From a virus, in the IMG/VR virus record IMGVR_UViG_3300043446_003177, positions 108,233 through 172,232 of that record: a stretch of DNA of 64,000 nt, one strand, 5' to 3'. Both the position numbers and the translations under genes were made by a program. The notes under the pieces are model-generated. The model had not been told where the DNA came from, ran no database searches, and saw only the letters and a program-made list of their open reading frames with translations. Below, one piece after another: positions 11,387 to 58,896 of this stretch (position 1 is its first letter; each line of letters starts with the position of its first letter).

Positions 11387-11820
11387 AACTAATGAGCAAA
11401 AATTTTGATGAACTAAATGAGACGTTTAACGTCGAGAGTTCTATTGTCGAAACAGAAAAAGATGACTCCGCAATAAAACCTATTGAAGAAAATAGTAAAG
11501 TTGATGATATTCAAAAGGATTATGAATATACTAGAGGAAATTTATATTCTTTAATTGAAAAAGGACAAGAAGCTATAAATGGAATTTTAGAACTTGCTCA
11601 AGAAAGTGAAATGCCCAGAGCTTATGAAGTTGCTGGGCAATTAATAAAAAGTGTTGCTGATGCAACAGATAAATTAATGGACTTACAAAAGAAGTTAAAA
11701 GATATTGATGAAAGTAAATCCTCCAGAGGACCAACTACAGTAAATAATGCTCTTTTTGTAGGATCTACTGCGGATTTAGCAAAATTTTTAAAACAACAAT
11801 CGCAAAATGAAAACGTTTAA
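11383..11820 (+). CDS. gp16: Terminase small subunit gp16
   Basis: DYEYTRGNLY...PRAYEVAGQLIK...NNALFVGSTADL. Confidence 0.93.
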   Translation: MKLMSKNFDELNETFNVESSIVETEKDDSAIKPIEENSKVDDIQKDYEYTRGNLYSLIEKGQEAINGILELAQESEMPRAYEVAGQLIKSVADATDKLMDLQKKLKDIDESKSSRGPTTVNNALFVGSTADLAKFLKQQSQNENV

Positions 11821-11962
11821 AGAATTTCAAGAAGAGTGGAGCAATAAATATAAGAAGAGTATTAATTGCTCAAATCCTAAAGGATTTTCTCAACGCGCCC
11901 ATTGTGCCGGTAGAAAGAAAAGAGCAAAAGGTGAACAGACTAAATCAAAACCAGTTGAATAA
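11807..11962 (+). CDS. 51-aa basic peptide with capsid-targeting-like N-terminus (MKTFKEFQEEWSNKYKKSINCSNPKGFSQRAHCAGRKKRAKGEQTKSKPVE); not in ORF track
   Basis: Fills the gap between gp16 and the next gene; TAATG coupling to 11962. Confidence 0.75.
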   Translation: MKTFKEFQEEWSNKYKKSINCSNPKGFSQRAHCAGRKKRAKGEQTKSKPVE

Positions 11963-13698
11963 TGCCCAAGATAAAGTCCCATAAAACAGTTGAACAAATT
12001 GCAAAGAAGCATCGCCTTGATGTTTCTTTCATACAGAAGCAACTTGATATGGGAGAACCCATTGAACATGAGCATACAAAAGATCATGAATTAGCGATGG
12101 ATATTGCTCTTCAACATCTTGATGAAATTCCAGATTATTATACTCGATTAAAAAAAATGGAGGCATCCGCCAAAAAAGAACATAAAAAATTTAAAGATGT
12201 TACTGAAGAGGGTCTTCGTGATTGGTTTGGAAAATCAAAATCAAAAGATGGAAAAGCGGGTTGGGTAAACGTTGTAACTGGCGGAACATGCGCTAGTGAT
12301 GAACCTGGAGAAGGAGTTCCAAAATGTGTCTCTTCTTCAAAAAGAGCGAGTATGACTCCAGCAGAAAGACGTTCTGCATCAAGAAGAAAAAAAGCGGCAG
12401 ATTCTGGACAACAAGAAAAATCTGGTGCTGCAAAACCAACCTATGTTTCTACAGATTCACCTAAAAAGAAAATGAAAGAAGAAATGGAAGTACAAGAAGA
12501 AAAAGATAAACCAAGTAAAGGTAGTGGTAAAAAAGATGCTTGCTATCATAAGGTAAAGGCAAGATATGATGTTTGGCCTAGTGCATATGCATCTGGTGCA
12601 TTGGTCAAATGTCGCAAAAAAGGTGCTGCAAATTGGGGTACAAAATCCGAAGCGGTAGAAGAAGAAAGATTTTGTCCATTATGCGATAAAAGGGAAAAAA
12701 GATCAGAATGTTCTTATGGGGAAGAAGCTTGGGATAAAGTATCAATTAAAGATCATGAATATTCTATGGCTAGATCAGAAATAAAGAACATTATTGATGC
12801 TGCTAAAAGACTTGAAAAGAAAGTAGCAAAAGGTGAAGGATCTCTGGAAGCTTGGGTACAATCAAAAATTACTAAGGCTGCAGACTACATTGATACTGCT
12901 GCAGATTATGTTGCAAGTGGAGAAATGGAAGAAGCATGTTGGACTGGATATAAGCAAGTGGGGATGAAAAAGAAAGGAAAAAAAATTGTTCCTAATTGTG
13001 TTCCAGCATCCGAAGAAAAACTAGTAGATAAAATTGTAAACGAAATTATTTCTGAAAAGCAAAATTCAAGTACAATTGAAGATGCAAATGGAAACAGTTT
13101 TGTTGAAGTAGTTAACTTGATTGAACCGGAACCAATCAAAGGATTTAAATCACAAATTGAAGAGGCAACACGTTTGCAGTCACAAACTGGAAATATAGTT
13201 GCAGTAACTATATCTTGGAGAGGAAAATATTATGCAATGCGTATGTTTTTCCCTCAGGCAAAAGTTCCATCAAGAAAAGAAATTAATGATGAGATTAAAA
13301 AAGTATATCCAAATTCTATAGTTGTTGCTCACTCAGTTTCCGAGTTTACTCCAGGACAACCCTTAATCCAAACTGGAGTTCAGGGTGGAAGTTACGGAAA
13401 TCCAGGTCCAAGCAAAAATTATGTAAAAACAATGGGTGAAGACTGGCAGTCAGTCAATCGCAAAGATAAAACTGATGGTCTCAGTCAAAAAGCTGTAAAT
13501 GCTTATCGTCGTGAGAATCCAGGTTCAAAACTTCAAACTGCAGTAACAGAAAAGAACCCAACAGGTAAAAGAGCATCTCGTCGCAAATCATTCTGCTCAA
13601 GGATGAGTGGTATGAAAAAAAGATTAACTTCCGCAAAAACTGCAAACGATCCAGATTCCAGAATCAACAAAGCCCTTCGTCGTTGGAACTGCAACTAA
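11962..13698 (+). CDS. Modular basic protein, probable internal head polyprotein (DUF5661-like N-terminal, DUF5872-like and DUF6321-like modules)
   Basis: Discrete Lys/Arg/Cys-rich modules separated by EE/xE motifs; lies in late operon. Confidence 0.7.
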   Translation: MPKIKSHKTVEQIAKKHRLDVSFIQKQLDMGEPIEHEHTKDHELAMDIALQHLDEIPDYYTRLKKMEASAKKEHKKFKDVTEEGLRDWFGKSKSKDGKAGWVNVVTGGTCASDEPGEGVPKCVSSSKRASMTPAERRSASRRKKAADSGQQEKSGAAKPTYVSTDSPKKKMKEEMEVQEEKDKPSKGSGKKDACYHKVKARYDVWPSAYASGALVKCRKKGAANWGTKSEAVEEERFCPLCDKREKRSECSYGEEAWDKVSIKDHEYSMARSEIKNIIDAAKRLEKKVAKGEGSLEAWVQSKITKAADYIDTAADYVASGEMEEACWTGYKQVGMKKKGKKIVPNCVPASEEKLVDKIVNEIISEKQNSSTIEDANGNSFVEVVNLIEPEPIKGFKSQIEEATRLQSQTGNIVAVTISWRGKYYAMRMFFPQAKVPSRKEINDEIKKVYPNSIVVAHSVSEFTPGQPLIQTGVQGGSYGNPGPSKNYVKTMGEDWQSVNRKDKTDGLSQKAVNAYRRENPGSKLQTAVTEKNPTGKRASRRKSFCSRMSGMKKRLTSAKTANDPDSRINKALRRWNCN

Positions 13699-14015
13699 TG
13701 AAATCATTCAATCAATTTCTATCAGAAGCTGTAAACATTGCCGGAGATTTTAACGGCAATCTATACATTAATAGTTCTGAAATGCAATCAGAACAGGTTA
13801 AAGAATCTTTTTTTGCTGATGTTGTATGGGAAGGGAGACTTTATCGCCTTGAAGTTGAAGGTAGCATGATGAATAAAACAGAACTAGCTGAACAACTTCA
13901 AGATCAATATCCAGGGGTAATTGTTCACAATATTTACCCACAACAACCATCAAGTTCATTAAAAATTAAAAATACGCAAAGATACCAACCAGAAAGATTG
14001 ACTTGGAGTGACTAA
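13698..14015 (+). CDS. Hypothetical protein starting MKSFNQFLSEA (capsid-targeting-like); paralog of a module of the upstream protein
   Basis: ATG at 13698 overlaps upstream TAA; WEGRLY...YPG similar to WRGKYY...YPN in upstream ORF. Confidence 0.75.
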   Translation: MKSFNQFLSEAVNIAGDFNGNLYINSSEMQSEQVKESFFADVVWEGRLYRLEVEGSMMNKTELAEQLQDQYPGVIVHNIYPQQPSSSLKIKNTQRYQPERLTWSD

Positions 14016-17311: not shown

Positions 17312-19585
17312 ATGGCGACTCCTCAATTATCTCCCGGTGTACTTATTAGGGAAGTTGACCTAACAGTAGGAAGGGCTGATAACGTATTTGAGAATACGGG
17401 TGGTATTTGTGCTCCTTTTTCAAAAGGACCAGTTAATGAGGTAATTGATGTTACCAGTGAGCAAGAGTTATTAAATGTTTATGGAAAACCACTTTCAACA
17501 GACAGACAATATGAGTGGTGGTTAAGTGCGTCTTCTTTCTTAACCTATGGTGGAAAATTAAAAACGGTAAGAATTGACGGAGATAACTTAAAAAATGCTA
17601 TTGTAGGATCTTCATCATCAACTCCAGCAGTTAAGATTAGAAATTATGACGAATATAGCGAGAATTATTCTGAGGCAGACGCAGTAAGTTTCTTATATGC
17701 TGCGAAGAATCCAGGAACCTGGGCAAATGGACTAAAAATTTGCACAATTGATGCTTTTGCTGATCAAAGGGTTGCAATTTCAACATCAGATCCAGTTGGT
17801 TCTGGAATAACTGTAGGCACAGAAATCTTTAAAAATTTAACAGCAGTATCAATTCCAGGTACTGGATCAACTACAACTTTCACAGGAAAACTTAGAGGAA
17901 TTGTAGTTGGAATTAATTCCAGCACTACAGGAACTTCTACTGTAGACATTAAAATTTTATCTAGAGTATCAACTGCAGGAACCACTTCAGGAACAGAAAC
18001 TGCCATAGATTATGCTTCTGGAAGTTCTGTTGCAGCATTTAATCAGAATGATACTATTTCTTTCCAAAGACCTGGCGGAACAGTTTCATTAACTGGAATT
18101 GGAACTCAAGCAACAACAACTACAACATTAGGAGTAGTTCTTGACTGGTACAACGAGCAAACTTTAAATTTAACAAATAATACAATTTATTGGAAATCAC
18201 TTGCACCAAGACCAAAAACTACAAACTATTCTCTAGCAAGAGGTGGAAAAAATGATGAAATTCATTTAGTTGTTGTAGATGATACCGGAACTTTTACCGG
18301 AACAAAAGGAGCACTAGTTGAAAAGTTCGTAGGAATGTCGAAATCCTTAGATGCAATTTCTGAGGTTAATTCTCCATCCAAGAATTGGTATAAATCCTAT
18401 CTTGCTAACTTCTCATCGATACTTTACGCAGGAACTAATTTGTCCGGCGCTACTGGAGCGATAGCACCACAATTTACAACAGTAAATTCTGGAATATCAA
18501 CAACACCATCTACTCTCTCTGGAGGTGTATGGAATCAAGAAGCTCAAGGAATTTACTTCAACGTACTTGGTAACCAATCCTATACGTTGGGCGGAACAAC
18601 AGTAGAAGGAACATCCTCATATTGGGGTGGAGTTGATTATGCAGCATCCACACAACCTGGACAATTTGCCGCTTCTCTTTCCGGATTAAACTCAGGTTAT
18701 GCTCTGTTCGATAATGATGATGATAAGGTAGTTGATTTCCTCATTGGGGGTCCTGGATTACCTGATGAAACCGAATCACAAGCACACGCAATTAATCTGA
18801 TCACAATTGCAGCAAATAGAAAAGATTGCCTTGCAGTAATTTCTCCACACAGATCAAATGTTTTAGGTGCCGCTGGTCCACTTGGGTCAGCAACACAAAC
18901 TAATAATGTAAACAAATTCTTTAATGGAATTACGATTTCATCATCATATGGAGTCTTTGATAGTGGGTGGAAGTACACCTACGATAGATTTAACAATCAG
19001 TTTGTTTACATTCCATGCAATGCGGATACTGCAGGTTTGATGGTCAGAACATCACTCGACCAATATTCTTGGTATTCACCTGCTGGACAGCAAAGAGGTG
19101 TTCTAAACAATGCTATTAAACTAGCATACAACCCATCTAAAGCACAAAGAGACGCAATTTATCCAAATAGAATTAATCCTATCATTTCTTCTCCTGGAAC
19201 AGGAATTATTCTATTCGGTGATAAAACCGCCTTAACATATCAATCAGCATTTGATAGAATTAACGTTAGAAGACTTTTCATTACTCTAAAGAGAGCACTG
19301 AAGAGAGCTGCTGAGGCACAACTGTTTGAATTCAACGATTCAATCACAAGAGCAAACTTTGTAAATATCGTTGAGCCATATCTACGTGATGTTCAGGCAA
19401 AGAGAGGTGTTTATGACTTCCTTGTTGTTTGCGATGAATCAAATAACACACCAGACATTATTGATAACAATGAATTTAGAGCTGAAATTTATCTGAAGCC
19501 AGCGAAATCAATTAACTACGTTACACTCACGTTTGTTGCTACCCGCACTGGCGTTAGCTTTGACGAAGTAGTTGGAACAGTTTAA
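17312..19585 (+). CDS. gp18: Tail sheath protein gp18
   Basis: LSPGVLIREVDLT, WYSPAG, FDRINVRRLF, KPAKSINYVTLTFVATRTG. Confidence 0.98.
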   Translation: MATPQLSPGVLIREVDLTVGRADNVFENTGGICAPFSKGPVNEVIDVTSEQELLNVYGKPLSTDRQYEWWLSASSFLTYGGKLKTVRIDGDNLKNAIVGSSSSTPAVKIRNYDEYSENYSEADAVSFLYAAKNPGTWANGLKICTIDAFADQRVAISTSDPVGSGITVGTEIFKNLTAVSIPGTGSTTTFTGKLRGIVVGINSSTTGTSTVDIKILSRVSTAGTTSGTETAIDYASGSSVAAFNQNDTISFQRPGGTVSLTGIGTQATTTTTLGVVLDWYNEQTLNLTNNTIYWKSLAPRPKTTNYSLARGGKNDEIHLVVVDDTGTFTGTKGALVEKFVGMSKSLDAISEVNSPSKNWYKSYLANFSSILYAGTNLSGATGAIAPQFTTVNSGISTTPSTLSGGVWNQEAQGIYFNVLGNQSYTLGGTTVEGTSSYWGGVDYAASTQPGQFAASLSGLNSGYALFDNDDDKVVDFLIGGPGLPDETESQAHAINLITIAANRKDCLAVISPHRSNVLGAAGPLGSATQTNNVNKFFNGITISSSYGVFDSGWKYTYDRFNNQFVYIPCNADTAGLMVRTSLDQYSWYSPAGQQRGVLNNAIKLAYNPSKAQRDAIYPNRINPIISSPGTGIILFGDKTALTYQSAFDRINVRRLFITLKRALKRAAEAQLFEFNDSITRANFVNIVEPYLRDVQAKRGVYDFLVVCDESNNTPDIIDNNEFRAEIYLKPAKSINYVTLTFVATRTGVSFDEVVGTV

Positions 19586-22216: not shown

Positions 22217-22774
22217 ATGGCGCATAAACCAGTAGGTGCGGGAATTTCATTATCAACAACTGCCGTTTCAGCATTAACCACTTCATTTTCCGTTCAATCA
22301 AATGTTCTGAGAGTGACTGCAGTTAATGCTGGGGCATTTGTTGCAATTGGAACAAACCCAACCGCATCAATTACAGATTATTATATTCCTGCAGGAAAAT
22401 CAGAAACTCTTGCTTTAACAAAAGCATCACAAAGAGTTGCTGGTATAACAACCGGAACAACTACTATTATTGATTTTCCAGAAGGAACTCAAACTCCTTT
22501 TGTTGCTGGAGATTATGTTACCTTAACAGTCACTGGGCAATCTTATTACAATTTTACCCATGTTCCTGTTATTTCCGTAAATAATACTGCATCTTATGAT
22601 GGGTATTTTTCAAAGAGAATTGTCGTAGATTATAACTCAAGTGGTATTGTAACCGCATTTTCACCAACAACATCATATGCTGATTTGAGAGGATCTATCA
22701 GAGTTGCTGCTAGAACCGAAGGTGGATCTGGAACCGTTTATATTCAACAAGTACAAATTTCAGGACAAGCATAA
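22217..22774 (+). CDS. Putative virion structural protein (beta-rich)
   Basis: Late promoter 22181-22187; Thr/Ser/Val-rich; between portal and protease. Confidence 0.65.
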   Translation: MAHKPVGAGISLSTTAVSALTTSFSVQSNVLRVTAVNAGAFVAIGTNPTASITDYYIPAGKSETLALTKASQRVAGITTGTTTIIDFPEGTQTPFVAGDYVTLTVTGQSYYNFTHVPVISVNNTASYDGYFSKRIVVDYNSSGIVTAFSPTTSYADLRGSIRVAARTEGGSGTVYIQQVQISGQA

Positions 22775-23424
22775 TGAAACTTATTACCGAAGAAATCGAA
22801 TCAGTAGAAGTTCTTACCGAAACGGTCAACGGTAAGAAGACTCTTTATATCCAAGGACCTTTCCTTCAAACTGAAGTTGTAAACAGAAACGGTAGAATGT
22901 ATCGTTTACCTGTTATGGAAAGAGAGGTAAAGCGTTACACTGAACAATATGTAAATAAGGGTCGTGCTCTTGGAGAGCTTGGACACCCTGATGGTCCTAC
23001 TGTAAATCTAGATCGAGTCTCCCATAAAATTGTTTCACTTCACCGCGAAGGAAATAATTTTATTGGTAAGGCGCAAATCCTCTCAACTCCAATGGGAAAA
23101 ATTGCAGAGTCACTTTTAAAAGAAGGAGTTACTCTTGGCGTTTCCTCTCGTGGTATTGGTTCAGTCAAATCTACTCGTGAAGGTTTTACTGAAGTTGGCG
23201 AAGATTTCATGCTAGCAACTGCTGCTGATATCGTTGCCGATCCTTCTGCTCCTGACGCTTTTGTTCAGGGAATCATGGAAGGAAAGGAATGGGTTTGGGA
23301 AGGTGGAATGCTCAGAGAAAGAGCAGCACAAAAAACTTATAAGAGAATTAATACTCTTGTAGACCAAAAACGTCTGGAAGAGCATAAATTGAATCTATTC
23401 AATGAGTTTTTAAACTCATTGTAA
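22774..23424 (+). CDS. gp21: Prohead core protease gp21
   Basis: ALGELGHP, GVSSRGIGS, DIVADPSAPDAFV. Confidence 0.97.
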   Translation: MKLITEEIESVEVLTETVNGKKTLYIQGPFLQTEVVNRNGRMYRLPVMEREVKRYTEQYVNKGRALGELGHPDGPTVNLDRVSHKIVSLHREGNNFIGKAQILSTPMGKIAESLLKEGVTLGVSSRGIGSVKSTREGFTEVGEDFMLATAADIVADPSAPDAFVQGIMEGKEWVWEGGMLRERAAQKTYKRINTLVDQKRLEEHKLNLFNEFLNSL

Positions 23425-23483: not shown

Positions 23484-24674
23484 ATGTCTCGTGGAGATTT
23501 ACAAGAAATGGAAGTAGGCACTAAGCAATCCAAAACCGCTGTCAATGCAAATGCAAAAGCGGGAGATCCAATGCCTAAACTAGCAGCAGGTGCCGTTGCT
23601 GGGCAAACAGGTGGTTGGGAAGATCTGGGTGGTCCAGATCCAACAAACTATCGTCCAGATGATGACTCGGCTAAATTAAAAACACCTGGAGCAACTCTTA
23701 AGCAAGTTAGAGATGTTGTTAATAAGGGTGCTAAAGCTGCAGATCCAACTCCTCATATGAAAGGTGCTGTTAAAGAAGAAACCGAAGAAGATGAGGAAGA
23801 TCTAATTGTAGACGAAGAGGATCTTGAAATCTCTGATGACGAAGAAGTAGTAGAAGAAGAAGCTTCTGAAAAAGAAGAAAAGGGTGAGAAGGAAGAGAAG
23901 GGTAAGAAGGATAAGGAAGAAGAAGAGGAAGAGGAAGAGATGGAAGAAGAGTTTAACATCGATGAAGATGTTAATGCTCTCTTAGATGGCGAAGAGCTCT
24001 CTGAGGAATTCCAAGAGAAAGCACGTATCATTTTTGAAGCTGCTCTTCGTTCAAAAGTTTCTGATATTAAAGAAACTCTTGAAGAGCAGTATGAGCAAAG
24101 ACTTTCTGAAGAAATTTCAGAAATCAAATCAGTTCTTCAAGAAAGAATTGATTCATACTTAGAGTATGTTGCTGACGAATGGTTTGAGGAAAATGCTCTA
24201 GCAATTGAGCATGGAATCAAAACCGAGATTACCGAGTCATTCCTCCAAGGAATGAAGGGTCTTTTTGAAGAGCATTATGTAACAATCCCTGAAGATAGAT
24301 ATGATGTTTTAGAGAGCATGGTAGACAAACTTGATGAAATGGAGACAAAACTCAACGAGCAGATTGAGAGAAATATTTCCCTAAACAAGCGCCTCGCAGA
24401 GTCGGTTGCTGACGGAATCTTAGATCAAGTCTCTGAGGGCCTTGCTGCTACTCAGAAAGAAAAGCTCGCTTCACTTGCCGAAAGTGTTGAGTTTGAAAGT
24501 GAAGAGGAATATCGTGAAAAACTGGAGACTTTAAAGGAATCATATTTTCCTTCCAGAACAGTATCTCCATCAGCTAAAACAGAAACCCTCTCAGAGGGTT
24601 TAGACAGAGCACCTGAAAATGTAACAGGTTCGATGGCGGCTTATCTGAGAACGCTTTCATCTTTTAGCAAATAA
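23484..24674 (+). CDS. gp22: Prohead scaffolding protein gp22
   Basis: Very acidic coiled coil, LSEEFQEKARIIFEAA, YLEYVADEW; TATAAATA 23435-23442. Confidence 0.95.
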   Translation: MSRGDLQEMEVGTKQSKTAVNANAKAGDPMPKLAAGAVAGQTGGWEDLGGPDPTNYRPDDDSAKLKTPGATLKQVRDVVNKGAKAADPTPHMKGAVKEETEEDEEDLIVDEEDLEISDDEEVVEEEASEKEEKGEKEEKGKKDKEEEEEEEEMEEEFNIDEDVNALLDGEELSEEFQEKARIIFEAALRSKVSDIKETLEEQYEQRLSEEISEIKSVLQERIDSYLEYVADEWFEENALAIEHGIKTEITESFLQGMKGLFEEHYVTIPEDRYDVLESMVDKLDEMETKLNEQIERNISLNKRLAESVADGILDQVSEGLAATQKEKLASLAESVEFESEEEYREKLETLKESYFPSRTVSPSAKTETLSEGLDRAPENVTGSMAAYLRTLSSFSK

Positions 24675-24724: not shown

Positions 24725-26155
24725 ATGTTCCATTCCGAGCATCTGCAGGAAAAGTGGGCACCACTCCTCAACTATGAGGGTCTTGATCAAATCAAAGATT
24801 CGCATCGTAGAGCGGTAACCGCAGTCCTGCTAGAAAACCAAGAAAGATTTTTAAGAGAGCAATCTGCATTTGAAAGTGCAGGTTCATTCCTAACCGAAAC
24901 TCCAGTAAACAGCACTGCTTCAAGTTCAACTGCAGGTTTCGGTGGTAGCGCACAAGGATTTAGCGCAGGTCCTACCGCAGGTTTCGACCCTGTTCTGATC
25001 TCTCTGATCAGACGCTCAATGCCTAACCTTGTTGCTTATGATCTCGCTGGCGTTCAACCAATGAACGGTCCAACCGGCCTGATCTTTGCAATGCGTTCAC
25101 GCTACAACAACCAGAGCGGTACAGAAGCATTCTATAACGAAGTTGATACCGCATGGTCTGGTCAGCCATTTGGCCGCGATAACGAAGATGGATTTACCAA
25201 CGGTGCCGTTGGTATGGGTACTACTGCACAAAATGGTACAAACCCATCCGTTCTGAACGCAGCTGGTGCAGCTGGTGGCGACTACAATGTTGGTCAGGGT
25301 ATGCGTACTGACCAGGCTGAAGCACTTGATAGTGGTGCGGACGCTTTCAACCAGATGGCGTTCTCAATCGAGAAGGTTACCGTTACTGCAAAGTCACGCG
25401 CCCTCAAGGCTGAGTACACCTTAGAACTCGCACAAGACCTCAAGGCAATCCACGGTCTGAATGCTGAAGCGGAACTCGCAAATATTCTCTCAACTGAGAT
25501 TCTTGCTGAGATCAACCGCGAAGTCATCAGAACCATCTACAAGGTTGCTGAACAGGGTGCTGCTCAAAACACCGCTACTGCTGGTGTATTTGACCTCGAC
25601 GTTGATTCAAACGGTCGTTGGTCGGTTGAGAAGTTCAAGGGTCTACTCTTCCAGATCGAGAGAGATGCAAACGCAATCGCTCAAAGAACTCGTAGAGGAA
25701 AGGGCAACATCATCATGTGCTCTGCTGACGTTGCTTCAGCACTGACCATGGCTGGTGTTCTCGATTACACCCCTGCGCTCAATGCTAATCTGTCTGTTGA
25801 TGATACCGGTAATACTTTTGCTGGTACTCTGATGGGCAAATTCCGCGTCTACATTGACCCATATGCTGCTAACCTGACTTCAGGTAACGCTGCTCCAACA
25901 GGTGGTAACCAGTACTACGTTGTTGGTTATAAGGGTTCTTCACCTTATGACGCAGGTCTCTTCTATTGCCCATATGTTCCTCTCCAAATGGTACGTGCCG
26001 TTGGTGAGAACAGCTTCCAGCCTAAGATCGGCTTTAAGACCCGTTATGGAATGGTTGCAAACCCATTCGCTGAGGGTACTACCCAGGGTCAAGGCAATCT
26101 CACTGTTAACGCAAACCGTTACTACAGAAGAGTTGCTGTGAAAAATTTAATGTGA
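24725..26155 (+). CDS. gp23: Major capsid protein gp23
   Basis: GVQPMNGPTGLIFAMR, SRALKAEYTLELAQDLKAIHGL, FYCPYVPL, FQPKIGFKTRYG. Confidence 0.99.
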   Translation: MFHSEHLQEKWAPLLNYEGLDQIKDSHRRAVTAVLLENQERFLREQSAFESAGSFLTETPVNSTASSSTAGFGGSAQGFSAGPTAGFDPVLISLIRRSMPNLVAYDLAGVQPMNGPTGLIFAMRSRYNNQSGTEAFYNEVDTAWSGQPFGRDNEDGFTNGAVGMGTTAQNGTNPSVLNAAGAAGGDYNVGQGMRTDQAEALDSGADAFNQMAFSIEKVTVTAKSRALKAEYTLELAQDLKAIHGLNAEAELANILSTEILAEINREVIRTIYKVAEQGAAQNTATAGVFDLDVDSNGRWSVEKFKGLLFQIERDANAIAQRTRRGKGNIIMCSADVASALTMAGVLDYTPALNANLSVDDTGNTFAGTLMGKFRVYIDPYAANLTSGNAAPTGGNQYYVVGYKGSSPYDAGLFYCPYVPLQMVRAVGENSFQPKIGFKTRYGMVANPFAEGTTQGQGNLTVNANRYYRRVAVKNLM

Positions 26156-26232: not shown

Positions 26233-26559
26233 ATGCCTAGACCAATTACCAATACCACTGGATTTTATGGAGAAGGGAAAACCAAAAGACGGGCAGAAAA
26301 TCATCGTATAAATGTTAGAAAACGTAGAGATGAAAGAAAACAATACTTAGTTGATCATTTTGGAGATAAGTGTCATGATTGTAAAAATAGTTTTCCAGTA
26401 TGTTGCTATGATTTTCATCATATAGACCCATCTACAAAATCTTTTGAAATTGCCCCTAGATTAGACGGAAATTTGGAAACTATTATGGAAGAGGTAAAAA
26501 AATGTATAATGATATGCTCAAACTGTCATAGAATTAGACACTATAAAGAAAGCAGATAA
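26233..26559 (+). CDS. HNH endonuclease (free-standing, possibly homing)
   Basis: CHDC...YDFHHIDP..K...KCIMICSNCHRIRH. Confidence 0.85.
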   Translation: MPRPITNTTGFYGEGKTKRRAENHRINVRKRRDERKQYLVDHFGDKCHDCKNSFPVCCYDFHHIDPSTKSFEIAPRLDGNLETIMEEVKKCIMICSNCHRIRHYKESR

Positions 26560-52701: not shown

Positions 52702-53946
52702 ATGAAAAGTTTTTCACGATTTTTATCTGAGGCGCAGTCTTCTCAAGCCGTAATGCAAGCAAAAAGGCTTGGTTTGGTTGGTGATGGTCATGGTGGGTGG
52801 TACGATAAAAATGGTGAATTTGTTGCAAAAACTGAAGGTAGTAAATTAAAGTTTTATAATAAGAATCAAGTTCCTGGGCAGCAAGATCCTCCTCAAGATA
52901 GAACTGCTGCTAATCAACAACCAGTTGCAACTCAGGTTCAAGCACCACAGCAAGAACAACCACCTGCAGAAGAACCAAAGAAAGATAAAGGAATTCTAAC
53001 CGTTGCTTTTGGGCGTTTTAATCCTCCAACAACAGGGCATGAGAAACTTCTAGATAAAGTTGCTAATGTTGCTGGAAAGGGTGAATACAAAATTTATCCA
53101 TCAAGATCTAACGATAAGAAAAAGAATCCACTAGATCCTGATACTAAAATTTCAATCATGCGTCAGATGTATCCGAAGCATGGTGAAAGAATTGTGAATG
53201 ATGCAAACTCAAAGACAATCTTTGATGTATTGAAGCAAGCACATGCAGATGGATATTCTGGAGTTAATATTGTAGTTGGTTCTGATCGTCAAGCAGAATT
53301 TGAAAAACTTGCAACTCAGTATAACGGCGAACTCTATGATTTTAAGGATTTGAATGTAGTTTCTGCTGGAGAAAGAGATCCTGATGCTGAGGGTGTGGAA
53401 GGAATGTCTGCATCCAAACTCCGCAAGGCAGCAGCAGAAGGAGACTTTAAAACATTTAGGTCAGGAGTTCCTTCCACACTTGATGATGAATCTGCAAAGA
53501 AAATATACAATACCATCCGCAAATCTATGGGTGTTAAAGAAGGATGGGACTTGTGGGAAATTGCCCCTAAATTTGATTGGAAGAATTTGAGAGAGAATTA
53601 TATCTCTCAGAATATATTTAAGATGGGGCAACTAGTTGAAAATTTAAATACGGGTCTTATTGGGAAGATAATTCGTAGAGGAACAAATTATTTAATTTGT
53701 GTAACTGAAGATAATATAATGTTTAAATCTTGGATTAAAGATGTAATGGAATATACTGAAGTTAAAATGGATACTCCAATGAGAGATAAAAAACATCCAA
53801 ATACGTTGGTTGGTACTCTAGGTGCATTTAAGCATTATGCAAAAATGACTACTGGTGCAATAGGAACTGGAAAAGAAAATCTGACTTCAAGTTCAAAGGC
53901 GTATGGTATTAATTTCATAAATAAGTATAAGGCAAATAAGAAGTAA
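52702..53946 (+). CDS. Cytidyltransferase-like (HIGH-family) nucleotidyltransferase with capsid-targeting-like N-terminus
   Basis: FGRFNPPTTGHEKL, VVGSDR, MSASKLR; ATAAATA 52675-52681. Confidence 0.88.
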   Translation: MKSFSRFLSEAQSSQAVMQAKRLGLVGDGHGGWYDKNGEFVAKTEGSKLKFYNKNQVPGQQDPPQDRTAANQQPVATQVQAPQQEQPPAEEPKKDKGILTVAFGRFNPPTTGHEKLLDKVANVAGKGEYKIYPSRSNDKKKNPLDPDTKISIMRQMYPKHGERIVNDANSKTIFDVLKQAHADGYSGVNIVVGSDRQAEFEKLATQYNGELYDFKDLNVVSAGERDPDAEGVEGMSASKLRKAAAEGDFKTFRSGVPSTLDDESAKKIYNTIRKSMGVKEGWDLWEIAPKFDWKNLRENYISQNIFKMGQLVENLNTGLIGKIIRRGTNYLICVTEDNIMFKSWIKDVMEYTEVKMDTPMRDKKHPNTLVGTLGAFKHYAKMTTGAIGTGKENLTSSSKAYGINFINKYKANKK

Positions 53947-55920: not shown

Positions 55921-55944
55921 TCAAATAAAAACTTAATAATTTCG

Positions 55945-55968
55945 TGGGGAGTCTACTCCCCATTTTTT
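55945..55968 (+). terminator. Intrinsic terminator abutting late promoter TATAAATA (55968-55975)
   Basis: TGGGGAG-TCTA-CTCCCCA plus T6. Confidence 0.8.
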
Positions 55969-56007
55969 ATAAATATTTCTACGATTAAATTAATAAAGGT
56001 AAAAAGG

Positions 56008-56763
56008 ATGGCACTCTGGGGAATTTCCACAACTACTGAAACTGCTGCTAATAATTACGCTATTCCAAAGTATCAACAAAATACGGATAGAAATAGAAGC
56101 CCTTGGAATACTTTTGCAGATGTTCGTGGTTGGATTCAAAGACATTATGGAACTGCTGAGCATTCTGGTCTTTCTAGTACATACTATGATGAAGTTTTAG
56201 TTGTTGTTGCTGGATTAAATACAGGAACAGATGCTGTAGGAAATCCTGGATTAAACAATACTGGTATTGGAAGTGCTACCCCAGTTGCTATTTTCTTTGA
56301 AGATCCTAATCAAGCATCTCCTATTTCTATTGGTGCTGGTGGTACGACAGGTATTGGAACTGGTAGAACTGGATATGTTCATGTTGTATGGAATGAAAAT
56401 GTTTACTGCTCCGCTGGTGCAACAGTAAGAATTCTACGTTCAACTGGTGCAGCTCTTATTGGTACAGCAGCATCAACGGGTACAGCAGTTGTTAATTATA
56501 CAAATGCTGACGGTGCGGTATCGCAGACATTTAACGGTCAAATTTCTAATAGGATTTCCTTCGCGTTCACTGTACCAAACACTGGTATTGGAACTGTACT
56601 TTCTATTGATTTGGCTGCAGGGGTTGTTGGAACAATCACTGATTTCTCGGGTGGTGGTGCTGTAAACAAGTCACTTTCTGGTTTAATTAAGAATGTTGGC
56701 GGTGCTGGTGATTATCTGTCTGGTGTTGGTATTGGAACAACCACTTTAACAATTAAGGCATGA
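56008..56763 (+). CDS. Gly/Thr-rich virion structural protein (fiber or decoration-like)
   Basis: MALWG N-terminus, beta-rich composition, late promoter. Confidence 0.65.
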   Translation: MALWGISTTTETAANNYAIPKYQQNTDRNRSPWNTFADVRGWIQRHYGTAEHSGLSSTYYDEVLVVVAGLNTGTDAVGNPGLNNTGIGSATPVAIFFEDPNQASPISIGAGGTTGIGTGRTGYVHVVWNENVYCSAGATVRILRSTGAALIGTAASTGTAVVNYTNADGAVSQTFNGQISNRISFAFTVPNTGIGTVLSIDLAAGVVGTITDFSGGGAVNKSLSGLIKNVGGAGDYLSGVGIGTTTLTIKA

Positions 56764-56764
56764 T

Positions 56765-57157
56765 ATGATCTTCAATGAATTGAATGAGGATAATTTCCTC
56801 TTGTTTGCAATTAAACACTATGAAAATCCTCAAGCAGTTACGAAAGAAGACTTTGAGAAGGATTTGAATCATTTTAAGTATATTAAAAGATTGCTAAAAA
56901 GGTATAAAAATACCGGTAATTTAAAAACTCATCTCCTTCTCAATCATTTTATTATTCTTTATAATATATTTGGTGATGCTACCACTCCAATGCTTTTCTA
57001 TAAAATAGAGAAAGAACTTTGGGATAGTATGAAAACTTTTGTTATGTTTTTGGGTAAACTGCCTGAGTATCCAAAATGTTATATCCATGATGTTAAAGTT
57101 GATTTAGAATGTTTAAAAGAATTGCAAAAAATCTTCCATGGACAAAACGAAACTTGA
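56765..57157 (+). CDS. Conserved T4-like-phage hypothetical protein
   Basis: FNELNEDNFLLFAIKHY.NP...DL..FKYIKRL..Y. Confidence 0.75.
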   Translation: MIFNELNEDNFLLFAIKHYENPQAVTKEDFEKDLNHFKYIKRLLKRYKNTGNLKTHLLLNHFIILYNIFGDATTPMLFYKIEKELWDSMKTFVMFLGKLPEYPKCYIHDVKVDLECLKELQKIFHGQNET

Positions 57158-57374
57158 TAAAGTAATTGAAGCTTTTAGGCATCTTAAAGAAGATGGCGTT
57201 CCAACAATGAATACTGCTAGTACTGCAGGTAAAGCGGGATTCGGTGGAAGTGCTCAAGGATTTGACCCTGGACCAACTGCTGGTTTTGATCCAAAGATGG
57301 GTGGTGTAAGAAAAAGATATGCTAAAGGTGGAAGAGACTCCAGAAAAAAATGGTTGGACTACTTAAAGAAGTAG
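57138..57374 (+). CDS. 78-aa protein carrying a copy of the gp23 N-terminal arm
   Basis: AGFGGSAQGFDPGPTAGFDP versus gp23 AGFGGSAQGFSAGPTAGFDP. Confidence 0.8.
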   Translation: MDKTKLDKVIEAFRHLKEDGVPTMNTASTAGKAGFGGSAQGFDPGPTAGFDPKMGGVRKRYAKGGRDSRKKWLDYLKK

Positions 57375-57386
57375 CAGGTAAGAAAA

Positions 57387-57737
57387 ATGTTCAGCAACGA
57401 CTCAAAAATTCAATTAGCAGTGCTTCAGGAAAGATTTAAGGCACACGAACAGATTATTGAGAAAGTTGATACTGCTATTCAAACCTTAAGTGAAACGAAT
57501 CAAAATATTTGCAAGATGTTAACAGTTCATGATGAGCGTTTAGCACAATGTACTAAAGATGATGGAGAACTTTGTAAAAAAGTCGAAGATATTGAAAGTA
57601 GAATAGATAGTCTTTATAAGTTTAGATGGCAGATTGGCGGAGTCATTGCTGTTGCTGCTGTAGTTATTGGATTACTCCCATCAATTTCAACTATCTTTAA
57701 TCCTCCTTCTGCTGCTACAATAGAAAGAACAAAATAA
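57387..57737 (+). CDS. Coiled-coil protein with C-terminal transmembrane helix (XhlA/holin-like)
   Basis: Heptad region then RWQIGGVIAVAAVVIGLL. Confidence 0.65.
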   Translation: MFSNDSKIQLAVLQERFKAHEQIIEKVDTAIQTLSETNQNICKMLTVHDERLAQCTKDDGELCKKVEDIESRIDSLYKFRWQIGGVIAVAAVVIGLLPSISTIFNPPSAATIERTK

Positions 57738-57782: not shown

Positions 57783-57890
57783 ATGAAAACTAAAAAGAAA
57801 CCGACTAATTACTCTCTACATAAACTTACAAATTCCGTTATAAAGTGGACAGGAATTATAACCGTTTTATGCCTTGACAAGCAGAGATAG
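57783..57890 (+). CDS. Possible 35-aa late peptide (MKTKKKPTNYSLHKLTNSVIKWTGIITVLCLDKQR)
   Basis: CTAAATA 57749-57755 upstream; no clear SD. Confidence 0.35.
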   Translation: MKTKKKPTNYSLHKLTNSVIKWTGIITVLCLDKQR

Positions 57891-57901
57891 TCTGGTATAA
57901 T
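57874..57901 (+). promoter_or_regulatory. Sigma70-type early promoter for primase-nrdAB
   Basis: TTGACA-16 nt-TATAAT with extended -10 TG. Confidence 0.8.
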
Positions 57902-57924: not shown

Positions 57925-58896
57925 ATGGATTTTGTTGATGTGAAATACATCAATTTGATTTCTATCAGACTTCAAAAGTTTAAAAAAGTAAAAGATAATC
58001 TTTATAATTTTAGATGTCCTATTTGTGGAGATTCTGAAAGAAGCAAAAATAAAGCAAGAGGATATCTTTATCGAGTTAAGAATAATACAAATTTCAAATG
58101 CCATAATTGCGGCGTAAATATATCCTTTAATAACTTTTTAAAGAAAGTAGATAGCGAAGTATATAAGCAATATACATTTGAAAAATTTAAAGAAGGTAAC
58201 ACTGGAAAAAACTTTGTAGTAGAAGAACCAAAATTTAATTTTGAATCTCCTAAGTTTAAACAAAAATTAGATCTACCTAAAGCATCGTCAAATTCTGACG
58301 CAAAAAAATATCTTGAAAGTAGAAAATTAAACCCAGATAACTATTATTACACCGAAAAATTTAAGGAGTGGACAAATTCTTTCAAATTGATATTTGATGA
58401 TACAAGTAAAGATGAACCAAGAATAATTATTCCTTTGTTCTATCAAAATAGACTTGTTGGTTATCAGGGAAGATCTTTACTTCACCATTCTAAAATTAAA
58501 TATATAACGATCATGTTGGAGGACCAAGCTCCAAAAATTTATGGAATTGATAATCTTAAAAAAGAGGAGACGATTTATGTTACCGAAGGCCCATTTGACT
58601 CAACTTTCATTCCAAACGCGATTGCTCTTTGTGGAGCTGACGGTGATCTTAGTAAGTGGGGCATTAGCAATCCTGTGTGGATCTATGATAACGAACCACG
58701 TAATTCAGAAATCGTCTCCAGATATGCCTCTACCATCGCTAGAGGAGAAAAAATCGTCATCTGGCCAAATAGTATAAAAGAAAAAGACATTAATGAAATG
58801 ATATTGTCTGGACTTGAAGTTCAGTCCGTGATAGAATCAAATACTTATTCTGGATTAGAAGCAAAACTTAAATTCACCACTTGGAAGAAAATATGA
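57925..58896 (+). CDS. gp61: DNA primase gp61
   Basis: CPICGDS...CHNCG zinc finger; TOPRIM EGPFDS, YDNEPRN. Confidence 0.96.
   Translation: MDFVDVKYINLISIRLQKFKKVKDNLYNFRCPICGDSERSKNKARGYLYRVKNNTNFKCHNCGVNISFNNFLKKVDSEVYKQYTFEKFKEGNTGKNFVVEEPKFNFESPKFKQKLDLPKASSNSDAKKYLESRKLNPDNYYYTEKFKEWTNSFKLIFDDTSKDEPRIIIPLFYQNRLVGYQGRSLLHHSKIKYITIMLEDQAPKIYGIDNLKKEETIYVTEGPFDSTFIPNAIALCGADGDLSKWGISNPVWIYDNEPRNSEIVSRYASTIARGEKIVIWPNSIKEKDINEMILSGLEVQSVIESNTYSGLEAKLKFTTWKKI

Follow-up and report, generated by a model that had tools for sequence, protein, structure and literature searches.

A stand-alone copy of the gp23 N-terminal segment upstream of primase gene 61 in T4-like phages: a candidate minor head protein

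The 78-aa ORF, its operon and its match to gp23

The window analyzed here is a stretch of 64,000 nucleotides (nt) from the IMG/VR virus record IMGVR_UViG_3300043446_003177 (positions 108,233 to 172,232), and all window coordinates below count from its first letter. It belongs to a T4-like cyanophage and contains a small open reading frame (ORF) of 78 amino acids (aa) which carries a copy of the segment that follows the maturation cleavage site in the phage's own major capsid protein, gp23. The two genes and their parts are the following.

57138 to 57374, plus strand: 78-aa ORF, phrog_3286, ATG start; a leader, a copy of the gp23 post-cleavage segment and a basic tail, in this order.
57138 to 57191, plus strand: leader, residues 1-18; an amphipathic helix is predicted, and its last residues, L-K-E18, constitute an (L/I)-x-E site of the prohead-protease type. 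R14 and E18 occur in all 30 sequences compared.
57207 to 57296, plus strand: copy of the gp23 N-fist segment, residues 24-53 (BLASTP E=4e-12 versus gp23 61-97), with the family invariants M24, G34, F35, G45, P46, G49 and D51.
57297 to 57371, plus strand: basic C-terminal tail, residues 54-78, according to charge count and isoelectric point (pI).
24725 to 26155, plus strand: gp23, major capsid protein, 476 aa (Pfam Gp23, E=1.8e-150).
24887 to 24997, plus strand: gp23 maturation site F-L-T-E58 and the next 33 residues (59-91), template of the copy and equivalent of the N-fist (BLASTP; T4 equivalence from PMC9546572, PMC9958956).

Residues 24-60 of the small protein align with gp23 residues 61-97, 20 of 37 positions being identical (BLASTP, E=4e-12). 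An earlier, sequence-only reading of this DNA had reported a core match of 18 out of 20 positions; this core is found as described (residues 33-52, nt 57234-57293, against gp23 70-89, nt 24932-24991), and the significant alignment extends beyond it. The same reading pointed out that both proteins have an L-x-E motif (H-L-K-E18 and F-L-T-E58, respectively) followed by a P-x-N-x-T-A-S linker, which is correct, and E18 is invariant. It termed the copied part the N-arm. This is accurate insofar as the first ~25-30 residues of mature gp23* are copied, yet these make up the N-fist and the start of the arm and not the whole N-arm (PMC9958956).

The 33-mer following E58 of gp23 was scanned against all six frames of the whole 172-kb genome. 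gp23 itself scored 168, the small ORF 109 and the next frame 50, while the maxima of shuffled queries were 45 +/- 4.6 with 59 as the largest value. The small ORF is the sole second copy of the gp23 segment in this genome. In gp23 the Pfam Gp23 domain begins at residue 85, and the copied segment is placed ahead of the HK97-fold body domain. Because the copy carries no HK97-fold body and precedes the Pfam Gp23 domain, the 78-aa protein is not itself a capsid protein. A Pfam search with it matched no family, Gp23 (PF07068) included.

At the nucleotide level most third positions of the core differ. Among the 19 identical residues other than Met and Trp in this genome, 6 share the codon compared to 9.6 expected from independent codon choice. 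Extending the comparison to the 13 genomes with a clear match yields 219 such residues, of which 87 use the same codon against 96.6 expected, and the codon comparison gave no sign of a recent conversion tract in any of these 13 lineages. On codon usage, then, the match is kept at the protein level, and the sequence-only reading was right to stress differing synonymous codons and upkeep of the protein. It had interchanged its two codon lists, i.e., gcg gga ttc ggt gga agt gct is from the small ORF and gca ggt ttc ggt ggt agc gca from gp23, which leaves the point unaffected.

The 78-aa protein matches the profile of phrog_3286, a family of unknown function, over residues 1-74 (E=4e-7), as do the C-terminal parts of P-SSM2_205 (E=1e-12) and DLP_6_079 (E=6e-6). 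Its relatives form 87 clusters in a large protein collection. In alignments of 30-35 members R14, E18, M24, G34, F35, G45, P46, G49 and D51 are invariant; since these residues fall predominantly into the copied segment, this is the best-conserved part of the small protein. The ratio of nonsynonymous to synonymous substitution rates (dN/dS) is 0.04-0.20 in 9 of 11 orthologue pairs from IMG/VR contigs. The 78-aa ORF is a real gene under constraint; its conservation, on which the sequence-only reading had staked its proposal, is established by the clusters and the mostly low dN/dS. The charge is unevenly distributed. The copied part (residues 19-52) is acidic to neutral with a pI of 4.1, and residues 53-78 hold 11 K+R versus 2 D+E at a pI of 10.8, i.e., the basic tail is indeed present. 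The P-SSM2_205 protein closes with a tail of comparable make-up.

The small ORF is the third of four genes (phrog_11617, DUF7207, small ORF, DUF7201) located between two promoters.

55944 to 55975, plus strand: terminator-like hairpin (55944-55963) and then a T4-type late promoter, TATAAATA (55968-55975), 33 nt ahead of the ATG at 56008.
56008 to 56763, plus strand: first operon gene, 251 aa, phrog_11617.
56765 to 57157, plus strand: DUF7207 (PF23837), 130 aa; it shares its last 20 nt with the beginning of the small ORF.
57387 to 57737, plus strand: DUF7201 (PF23831), 116 aa, with a coiled coil and a C-terminal membrane helix; last operon gene.
57874 to 57901, plus strand: perfect sigma-70-type promoter (12/12, with TG extension), preceding primase gene 61 (57925-58896).

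The sigma-70-type promoter sets the early replication genes apart from the late operon. [TC]ATAAATA is also found in about a dozen other phages, ~35-45 nt upstream of the gene which precedes DUF7207, and in S-CRM01 additionally directly before the small gene. The assignment to a late operon, as already made from the letters alone, is supported by TATAAATA and by the conserved position of this promoter motif. Cyanophage counterparts at the first-gene position (T4-GC537/425) have been detected in virions (PMC3037559). The gene order DUF7207, copy gene, DUF7201, gene 61 is maintained across cyanophages.

Tracking of the cognate gp23 and counterparts in other phages

The gene following DUF7207 and gp23 of the same record were compared in 24 genomes. 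The set comprises six IMG/VR contigs, cultured cyanophages of many genera and, as non-cyanophage members, Pelagibacter HTVC008M, Sinorhizobium phiN3, Pseudomonas pf16, Stenotrophomonas DLP_6 and Caulobacter Cr30. Each plus-strand frame downstream of DUF7207 in genome i was scored against the gp23 segment of genome j, and the scores were double-centred. The mean score of own pairs was 23.2 versus 0 +/- 2.8 for permuted pairings (z=8.4; 0 of 100,000 permutations). Thus, orthologues do co-vary with the N-terminal segment of their own gp23, a check which the sequence-only reading had proposed. In a reduced set the own pair ranks best in 9-10 of 18 lineages.

From the cleavage site to the conserved D-P-[VI]-L, gp23 is highly divergent between lineages. 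When gp23 and the neighbour gene of one lineage are compared the picture is different: in many lineages they have private strings in common, e.g., GFGGSAQGF in the window's clade, GAQGGFGG in P-TIM68, QTTGYTG in P-SSM4, ATAGTGGF in S-RIM8, VGADGFQGS in S-CRM01, TNTGNI in phiN3, ANTT.GVA in pf16, IANV.G in HTVC008M and TNVGPINTPTT in P-HM1, where 19 of 23 positions are identical. The tracking is visible only at about the genus level and above. Rare re-matching with subsequent purifying selection and continuous co-evolution are equally compatible with this pattern. In the simplest history re-matching events would be rare, brought about by recombination or a burst of selection, and both copies would thereafter be under purifying selection for a long time. 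That re-matching events were repeatedly fixed in many lineages argues that the match itself is advantageous.

The T4 genome was scanned with gp23 residues 66-101. gp23 scored 184, a 58-codon frame at 18969-19142, which holds gene 61.1, scored 69, and the next frame 39; shuffled queries reached at most 48. Gene 61.1 (54 codons, annotated as 'hypothetical') is situated directly upstream of primase gene 61. Its product is identical to T4 gp23 in 17 of 37 positions across the cleavage site and the N-fist (E=6e-9) and starts with MKTFKEFIKE, a targeting leader of the internal-protein type. Gene 61.1 is the T4 positional counterpart of the small ORF. Both proteins are small, are encoded upstream of gene 61 on the same strand, have a leader which ends in (I/L)-K-E, copy the cleavage site and N-fist of their own gp23 ahead of a charged tail, and are each the only second match to the gp23 segment in their genome. 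They differ in that the T4 leader is of the canonical MKTF type and the leader here is not, that 61.1 has no DUF7207 neighbour, and that the order is small ORF, DUF7201, gene 61 in the window and 61.1, 61 in T4. No homology to gp61.1 was detected with the alignment of the 78-aa family (hhalign probability 0.7%, E=0.078), which is to be expected because each copies a different gp23; only position and design would speak for common descent. Literature searches for gp61.1 and for the locus tags of orthologues yielded nothing, and we found no paper which describes a free-standing copy of the gp23 N-fist.

The small ORF belongs to a class of genes which in T4-like phages in general are situated shortly before primase gene 61. 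Positional orthologues are spread over PHROGs 3286, 696, 4187 and 18642/2086, all annotated as function unknown. Targeting leaders of the MKTF type are present in P-SSM2_205, in the HTVC008M and Cr30 proteins and in T4 61.1. Leaderless forms, which start straight with the copy, occur in P-SSM4, S-SM1, S-RIM8, S-CAM22 and P-HM1. As leadered and leaderless forms both exist, a free gp23*-like N-terminus is the common feature.

SSM1_197, the gene after DUF7207 in S-SM1, belongs to cluster T4-GC426, which is listed as 'Structural protein' (Y, 17 peptide counts) in purified S-SM1 virions (Sullivan 2010; PMC3037559 Table S8, File S1). The members of this cluster (SSM1_197, PSSM4_163; phrog_696) resemble the 78-aa protein in occupying the slot after DUF7207 and in opening with a copy of the cognate gp23 segment ahead of a basic stretch. 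They differ by a length of 170-200 aa, an extra C-terminal domain and a coiled coil, and neither a leader nor a cleavage site is present in them. The 78-aa protein matches phrog_696 only marginally (E=0.0011). By way of this longer orthologue an association of the class with virions is indirectly supported.

In GenBank/RefSeq three of these genes carry the name 'major head protein', viz. L098:1860-2399 (P-SSM4_163), L144:1506-2054 (S-SM1, SSM1_197) and L114:1848-2381 (S-RIM8). The label is a misnomer, because a Gp23 domain is missing; evidently it stems from the short gp23 copy.

A minor head protein and competing explanations

In T4 residues 66-105 of gp23* are disordered and point inward in the unexpanded head, probably lying on the scaffolding core; after expansion they are on the outer surface as an extended arm and a 25-residue 'N-fist' (PMC9546572, PMC9958956). 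The N-fist touches four subunits, two of them in the adjacent capsomer (PMC9958956). The T4 capsid-length mutations A66D, A94V and G97S map within this segment (PMC9546572, PMC9958956). Its equivalent, from the cleavage site to the conserved F-D-P motif (T4 66 to ~100), is what has been copied; in gp23* it is part of an HK97-fold protein, whereas the copy is free of such a body. The idea that gp23 'whiskers' touch the portal proved wrong, as the N-whisker belongs to the portal protein gp20 (PMC7136217).

The T4 internal head proteins IPI, IPII, IPIII and Alt possess a leader ending in (L/I)-x-E which gp21 cuts off once they have been delivered into the scaffolding core (PMC3012670, PMC9958956). 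The 78-aa protein is similar in that these proteins are small or basic and have an N-terminal leader up to (L/I)-x-E, and its relatives have MKTF-type leaders. The internal proteins, however, have no likeness to gp23, whereas here a copy of the gp23* N-terminus tracks the cognate gp23, and their leaders are of the MKTY/MKTF type, unlike the 18-residue leader here. gp67 and gp68, prohead core components which are present in hundreds of copies (PMC9958956), are likewise small and gp21-processed, but their genes are located between 20 and 21, and in the genome-wide scan of T4, beyond which no search for homologues was made, neither resembled the gp23 N-fist. Both have been linked to head shape.

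We tentatively read the ORF as encoding a small, late-expressed minor head protein which is trimmed by the prohead protease and docks via its gp23-like N-terminus, a reading for which we consider the balance to be close. The small protein would enter the assembling prohead, where gp21 would cut off the leader and so expose the gp23*-like N-terminus. This N-terminus could then make the contacts of gp23's own N-terminal segment, i.e., by analogy with T4, it might face the scaffolding core in the unexpanded head and pack against neighbouring subunits in the expanded head. The basic tail would lie on packaged DNA. What is said here about location, copy number and role of the small protein we infer. 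The same design, each time matched to the phage's own capsid protein, recurs in T4-like phages and probably represents an overlooked minor head protein.

Several observations weigh against this proposal. What has been detected in virions is the longer T4-GC426 form of S-SM1 and not the 78-aa form, and the Syn9 member of this cluster is annotated yet was undetected in virions (PMC3037559). Cleavage at E18 is predicted from a three-residue motif, and with 18 residues and a start of M-D-K-T-K the leader is not of the canonical targeting type (MK[TS][FY], or MKTY/MKTF..F..E within ~10 residues). The copy is weak or missing at this position in S-PM2/Syn1 (phrog_4187), C48C1, AG-345-O18 and P-SSM2. 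Among close relatives (the window versus L009/L089; L010/L094 versus L032/L095) no residue-by-residue coordinated change was seen; the term 'co-evolving' in the sequence-only reading consequently holds for the co-variation with the cognate gp23 across the 24 genomes and not at this fine scale. Further, the tail of gp61.1 is of mixed charge and the tail here is basic; therefore DNA binding cannot be a universal function. T4 61.1 transcripts are classed as early (PMC9697503 supplement), and within 200 nt upstream of T4 61.1 there is no late promoter. A complex prediction with two copies of gp23 92-476 and the 78-aa protein returned a score of 0.00; it was run with no controls and weighs neither for nor against binding.

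A more specific role, put forward by the sequence-only reading along with a tethering of DNA and a modulation of assembly, is conceivable, albeit rather unlikely in our view: the trimmed copy could be a spare N-fist which fills docking sites in the gp23 shell that are without a donor, at the portal or at the vertices, with the basic tail tying the site to DNA. The contacts of the T4 N-fist reach the adjacent capsomer (PMC9958956), and therefore sites beside a non-gp23 neighbour would be donor-less. Searches of cyanophage genomes with gp23 revealed no gp24 paralogue, and if the copy has to fit a gp23 surface which changes fast, this would account for its match to the gp23 of the same phage. On the other hand, if gp23 itself forms the pentons vacant sites exist at the portal vertex alone, and the T4 N-fist ends up on the outer surface while the inside is where a basic tail is expected. 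A gene of the same kind is present in T4, whose pentons are made of gp24; therefore the absence of gp24 is not the driver. We give an equally low rating to the generalization that T4-like phages possess a detachable 'extra N-terminus' which plugs donor-less sites of the gp23 lattice (portal vertex, pentons) or gp23-binding sites of the scaffold. Were it true, this would be a so far unseen part of head-size control or of shell-DNA coupling, and the need to fit the own gp23 surface would drive repeated re-matching of both genes.

Three further explanations we regard as less likely than a minor head protein. The small protein might be a decoy or pacing substrate: in competition with gp23 it would engage gp21 and so set the pace of maturation cleavage, and it would later be degraded or lost. 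The similarity does span the cleavage site in T4 and here (F..L-x-E, then P-x-N-x-T-A-S), E18 is invariant, and T4 encodes a gp21 inhibitor (Inh), a precedent for regulation of the protease. But the leaderless forms of S-SM1, P-SSM4, S-RIM8 and P-HM1 keep the copy without an upstream cleavage site, one of them being found in virions, and T4 gp21 specificity is ascribed mainly to P3-P1, such that ~30 matched residues on the P' side exceed what a decoy needs; we consider this explanation unlikely. Improbable, too, is a mimic acting in the cytoplasm prior to assembly, which would occupy a factor that reads the nascent gp23 N-terminus, be it a chaperonin or a host capsid sensor. A decoy for a reader of the own capsid protein would have to track gp23, T4 61.1 is transcribed early, and Snyder and Tarkowski (2005, as cited in PMC3012670) are credited with the finding that the T4 gp23 N-terminus directs fusion proteins to GroEL. 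Yet a conserved host factor would not require lineage-private matching; the late promoter here and in about a dozen others, together with a first operon gene that has virion-protein counterparts, is at odds with such a role, and the targeting-type leaders and the virion detection of T4-GC426 point to the head. Finally, a small unrelated gene could occasionally have undergone gene conversion or recombination with the 5' part of gene 23, with the match as a functionless by-product. Tracking at about the genus level with none among close relatives is what episodic conversion would produce. Nevertheless, synonymous sites are fully randomized in all 13 lineages while the amino acids are still matched, no other part of the small protein is as well conserved as the copy, the arrangement has been retained in T4, cyanophages, a pelagiphage and Pseudomonas and rhizobial phages, and the nucleotide identity which conversion tracts need is now gone. 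A neutral origin of the match is thus highly improbable.

T4 head assembly is among the best-studied pathways, and the current part lists of the head in PMC9958956 and PMC3012670 omit gene 61.1 and the cyanophage counterparts. A copy which matches gp23 from coliphages to ocean cyanophages indicates a selective pressure on this segment, and the segment is also the one in which T4 capsid-length mutations map. In practical terms, peptides common to the copy and gp23 could confuse virion proteomics.

The head module and neighbouring genes

The head module of the window consists of gp20, DUF7243, gp21, gp22 and gp23, with no gp24 next to it. Two of its members bear on the proposal above.

22774 to 23424, plus strand: gp21 prohead protease (Peptidase_S77), for which cleavage after (L/I)-x-E is expected.
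23484 to 24674, plus strand: gp22 scaffolding protein (T4_CASP).

After gp23, where T4 has gene 24, a 108-aa Cys/His-rich, HNH-like ORF (26233-26559) is located behind a late promoter (26200). Exact TATAAATA sites are present at 117, 21974, 23435, 26200, 33884, 44647 and 55968. The count of seven versus 5.8 expected is not above chance; what stands out is strand and placement, i.e., all seven are on the plus (coding) strand, one immediately before gene 22 and another before the operon of the small ORF.

With 1295 clusters at 50% identity DUF7207 is a very large family; it occurs in T4-like cyano-, pelagi-, rhizobial, Pseudomonas, Stenotrophomonas and Caulobacter phages. In most genomes examined the copy-bearing gene follows it directly; DLP_6 and HTVC008M have one or two genes in between. 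It is absent from T4, and the idea that it is a universal partner of the copy gene was rejected for this reason. AlphaFold predicts DUF7207 with confidence as an all-helical bundle (pLDDT 91.9), for which Foldseek gave no match in the PDB at E<=0.001. DUF7201 (T4-GC201) lies between the copy gene and primase in most cyanophages examined and has weak PHROG matches to XhlA-type 'hemolysin' families. A relationship to the T4 head-vertex chaperone gp40 was considered and rejected since gp40 is PF11113 and has no DUF7201 match.

In non-cyanophage lineages a conserved domain of ~100 aa (phrog_18642/2086; PF.K..AFKLGIID) follows DUF7207, at these loci:

L101:1869-2294, phiN3.
L109:2393-2917, DLP_6.
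L133:1867-2469, HTVC008M.
L110:1857-2450, C48C1.

In phiN3 and DLP_6 this domain forms the N-terminal part of a fusion with the gp23 copy and the basic tail. HTVC008M encodes it in a gene of its own and has the copy two genes further on, in the protein with the MKTF leader. DLP_6 has a 2OG-Fe(II) oxygenase gene (L109:1883-2389) inserted between DUF7207 and the copy-bearing gene.

A pattern search of the genome for leaders resembling the T4-type capsid-targeting sequence (MK[ST]F) matched three ORFs and not the small ORF.

11807-11962: leader MKTFKEFQE.
13698-14015: leader MKSFNQFLSE.
52702-53946: leader MKSFSRFLSE.

The last of these encodes a nucleotidyltransferase whose family, T4-GC190, has been detected in S-SM1 virions.

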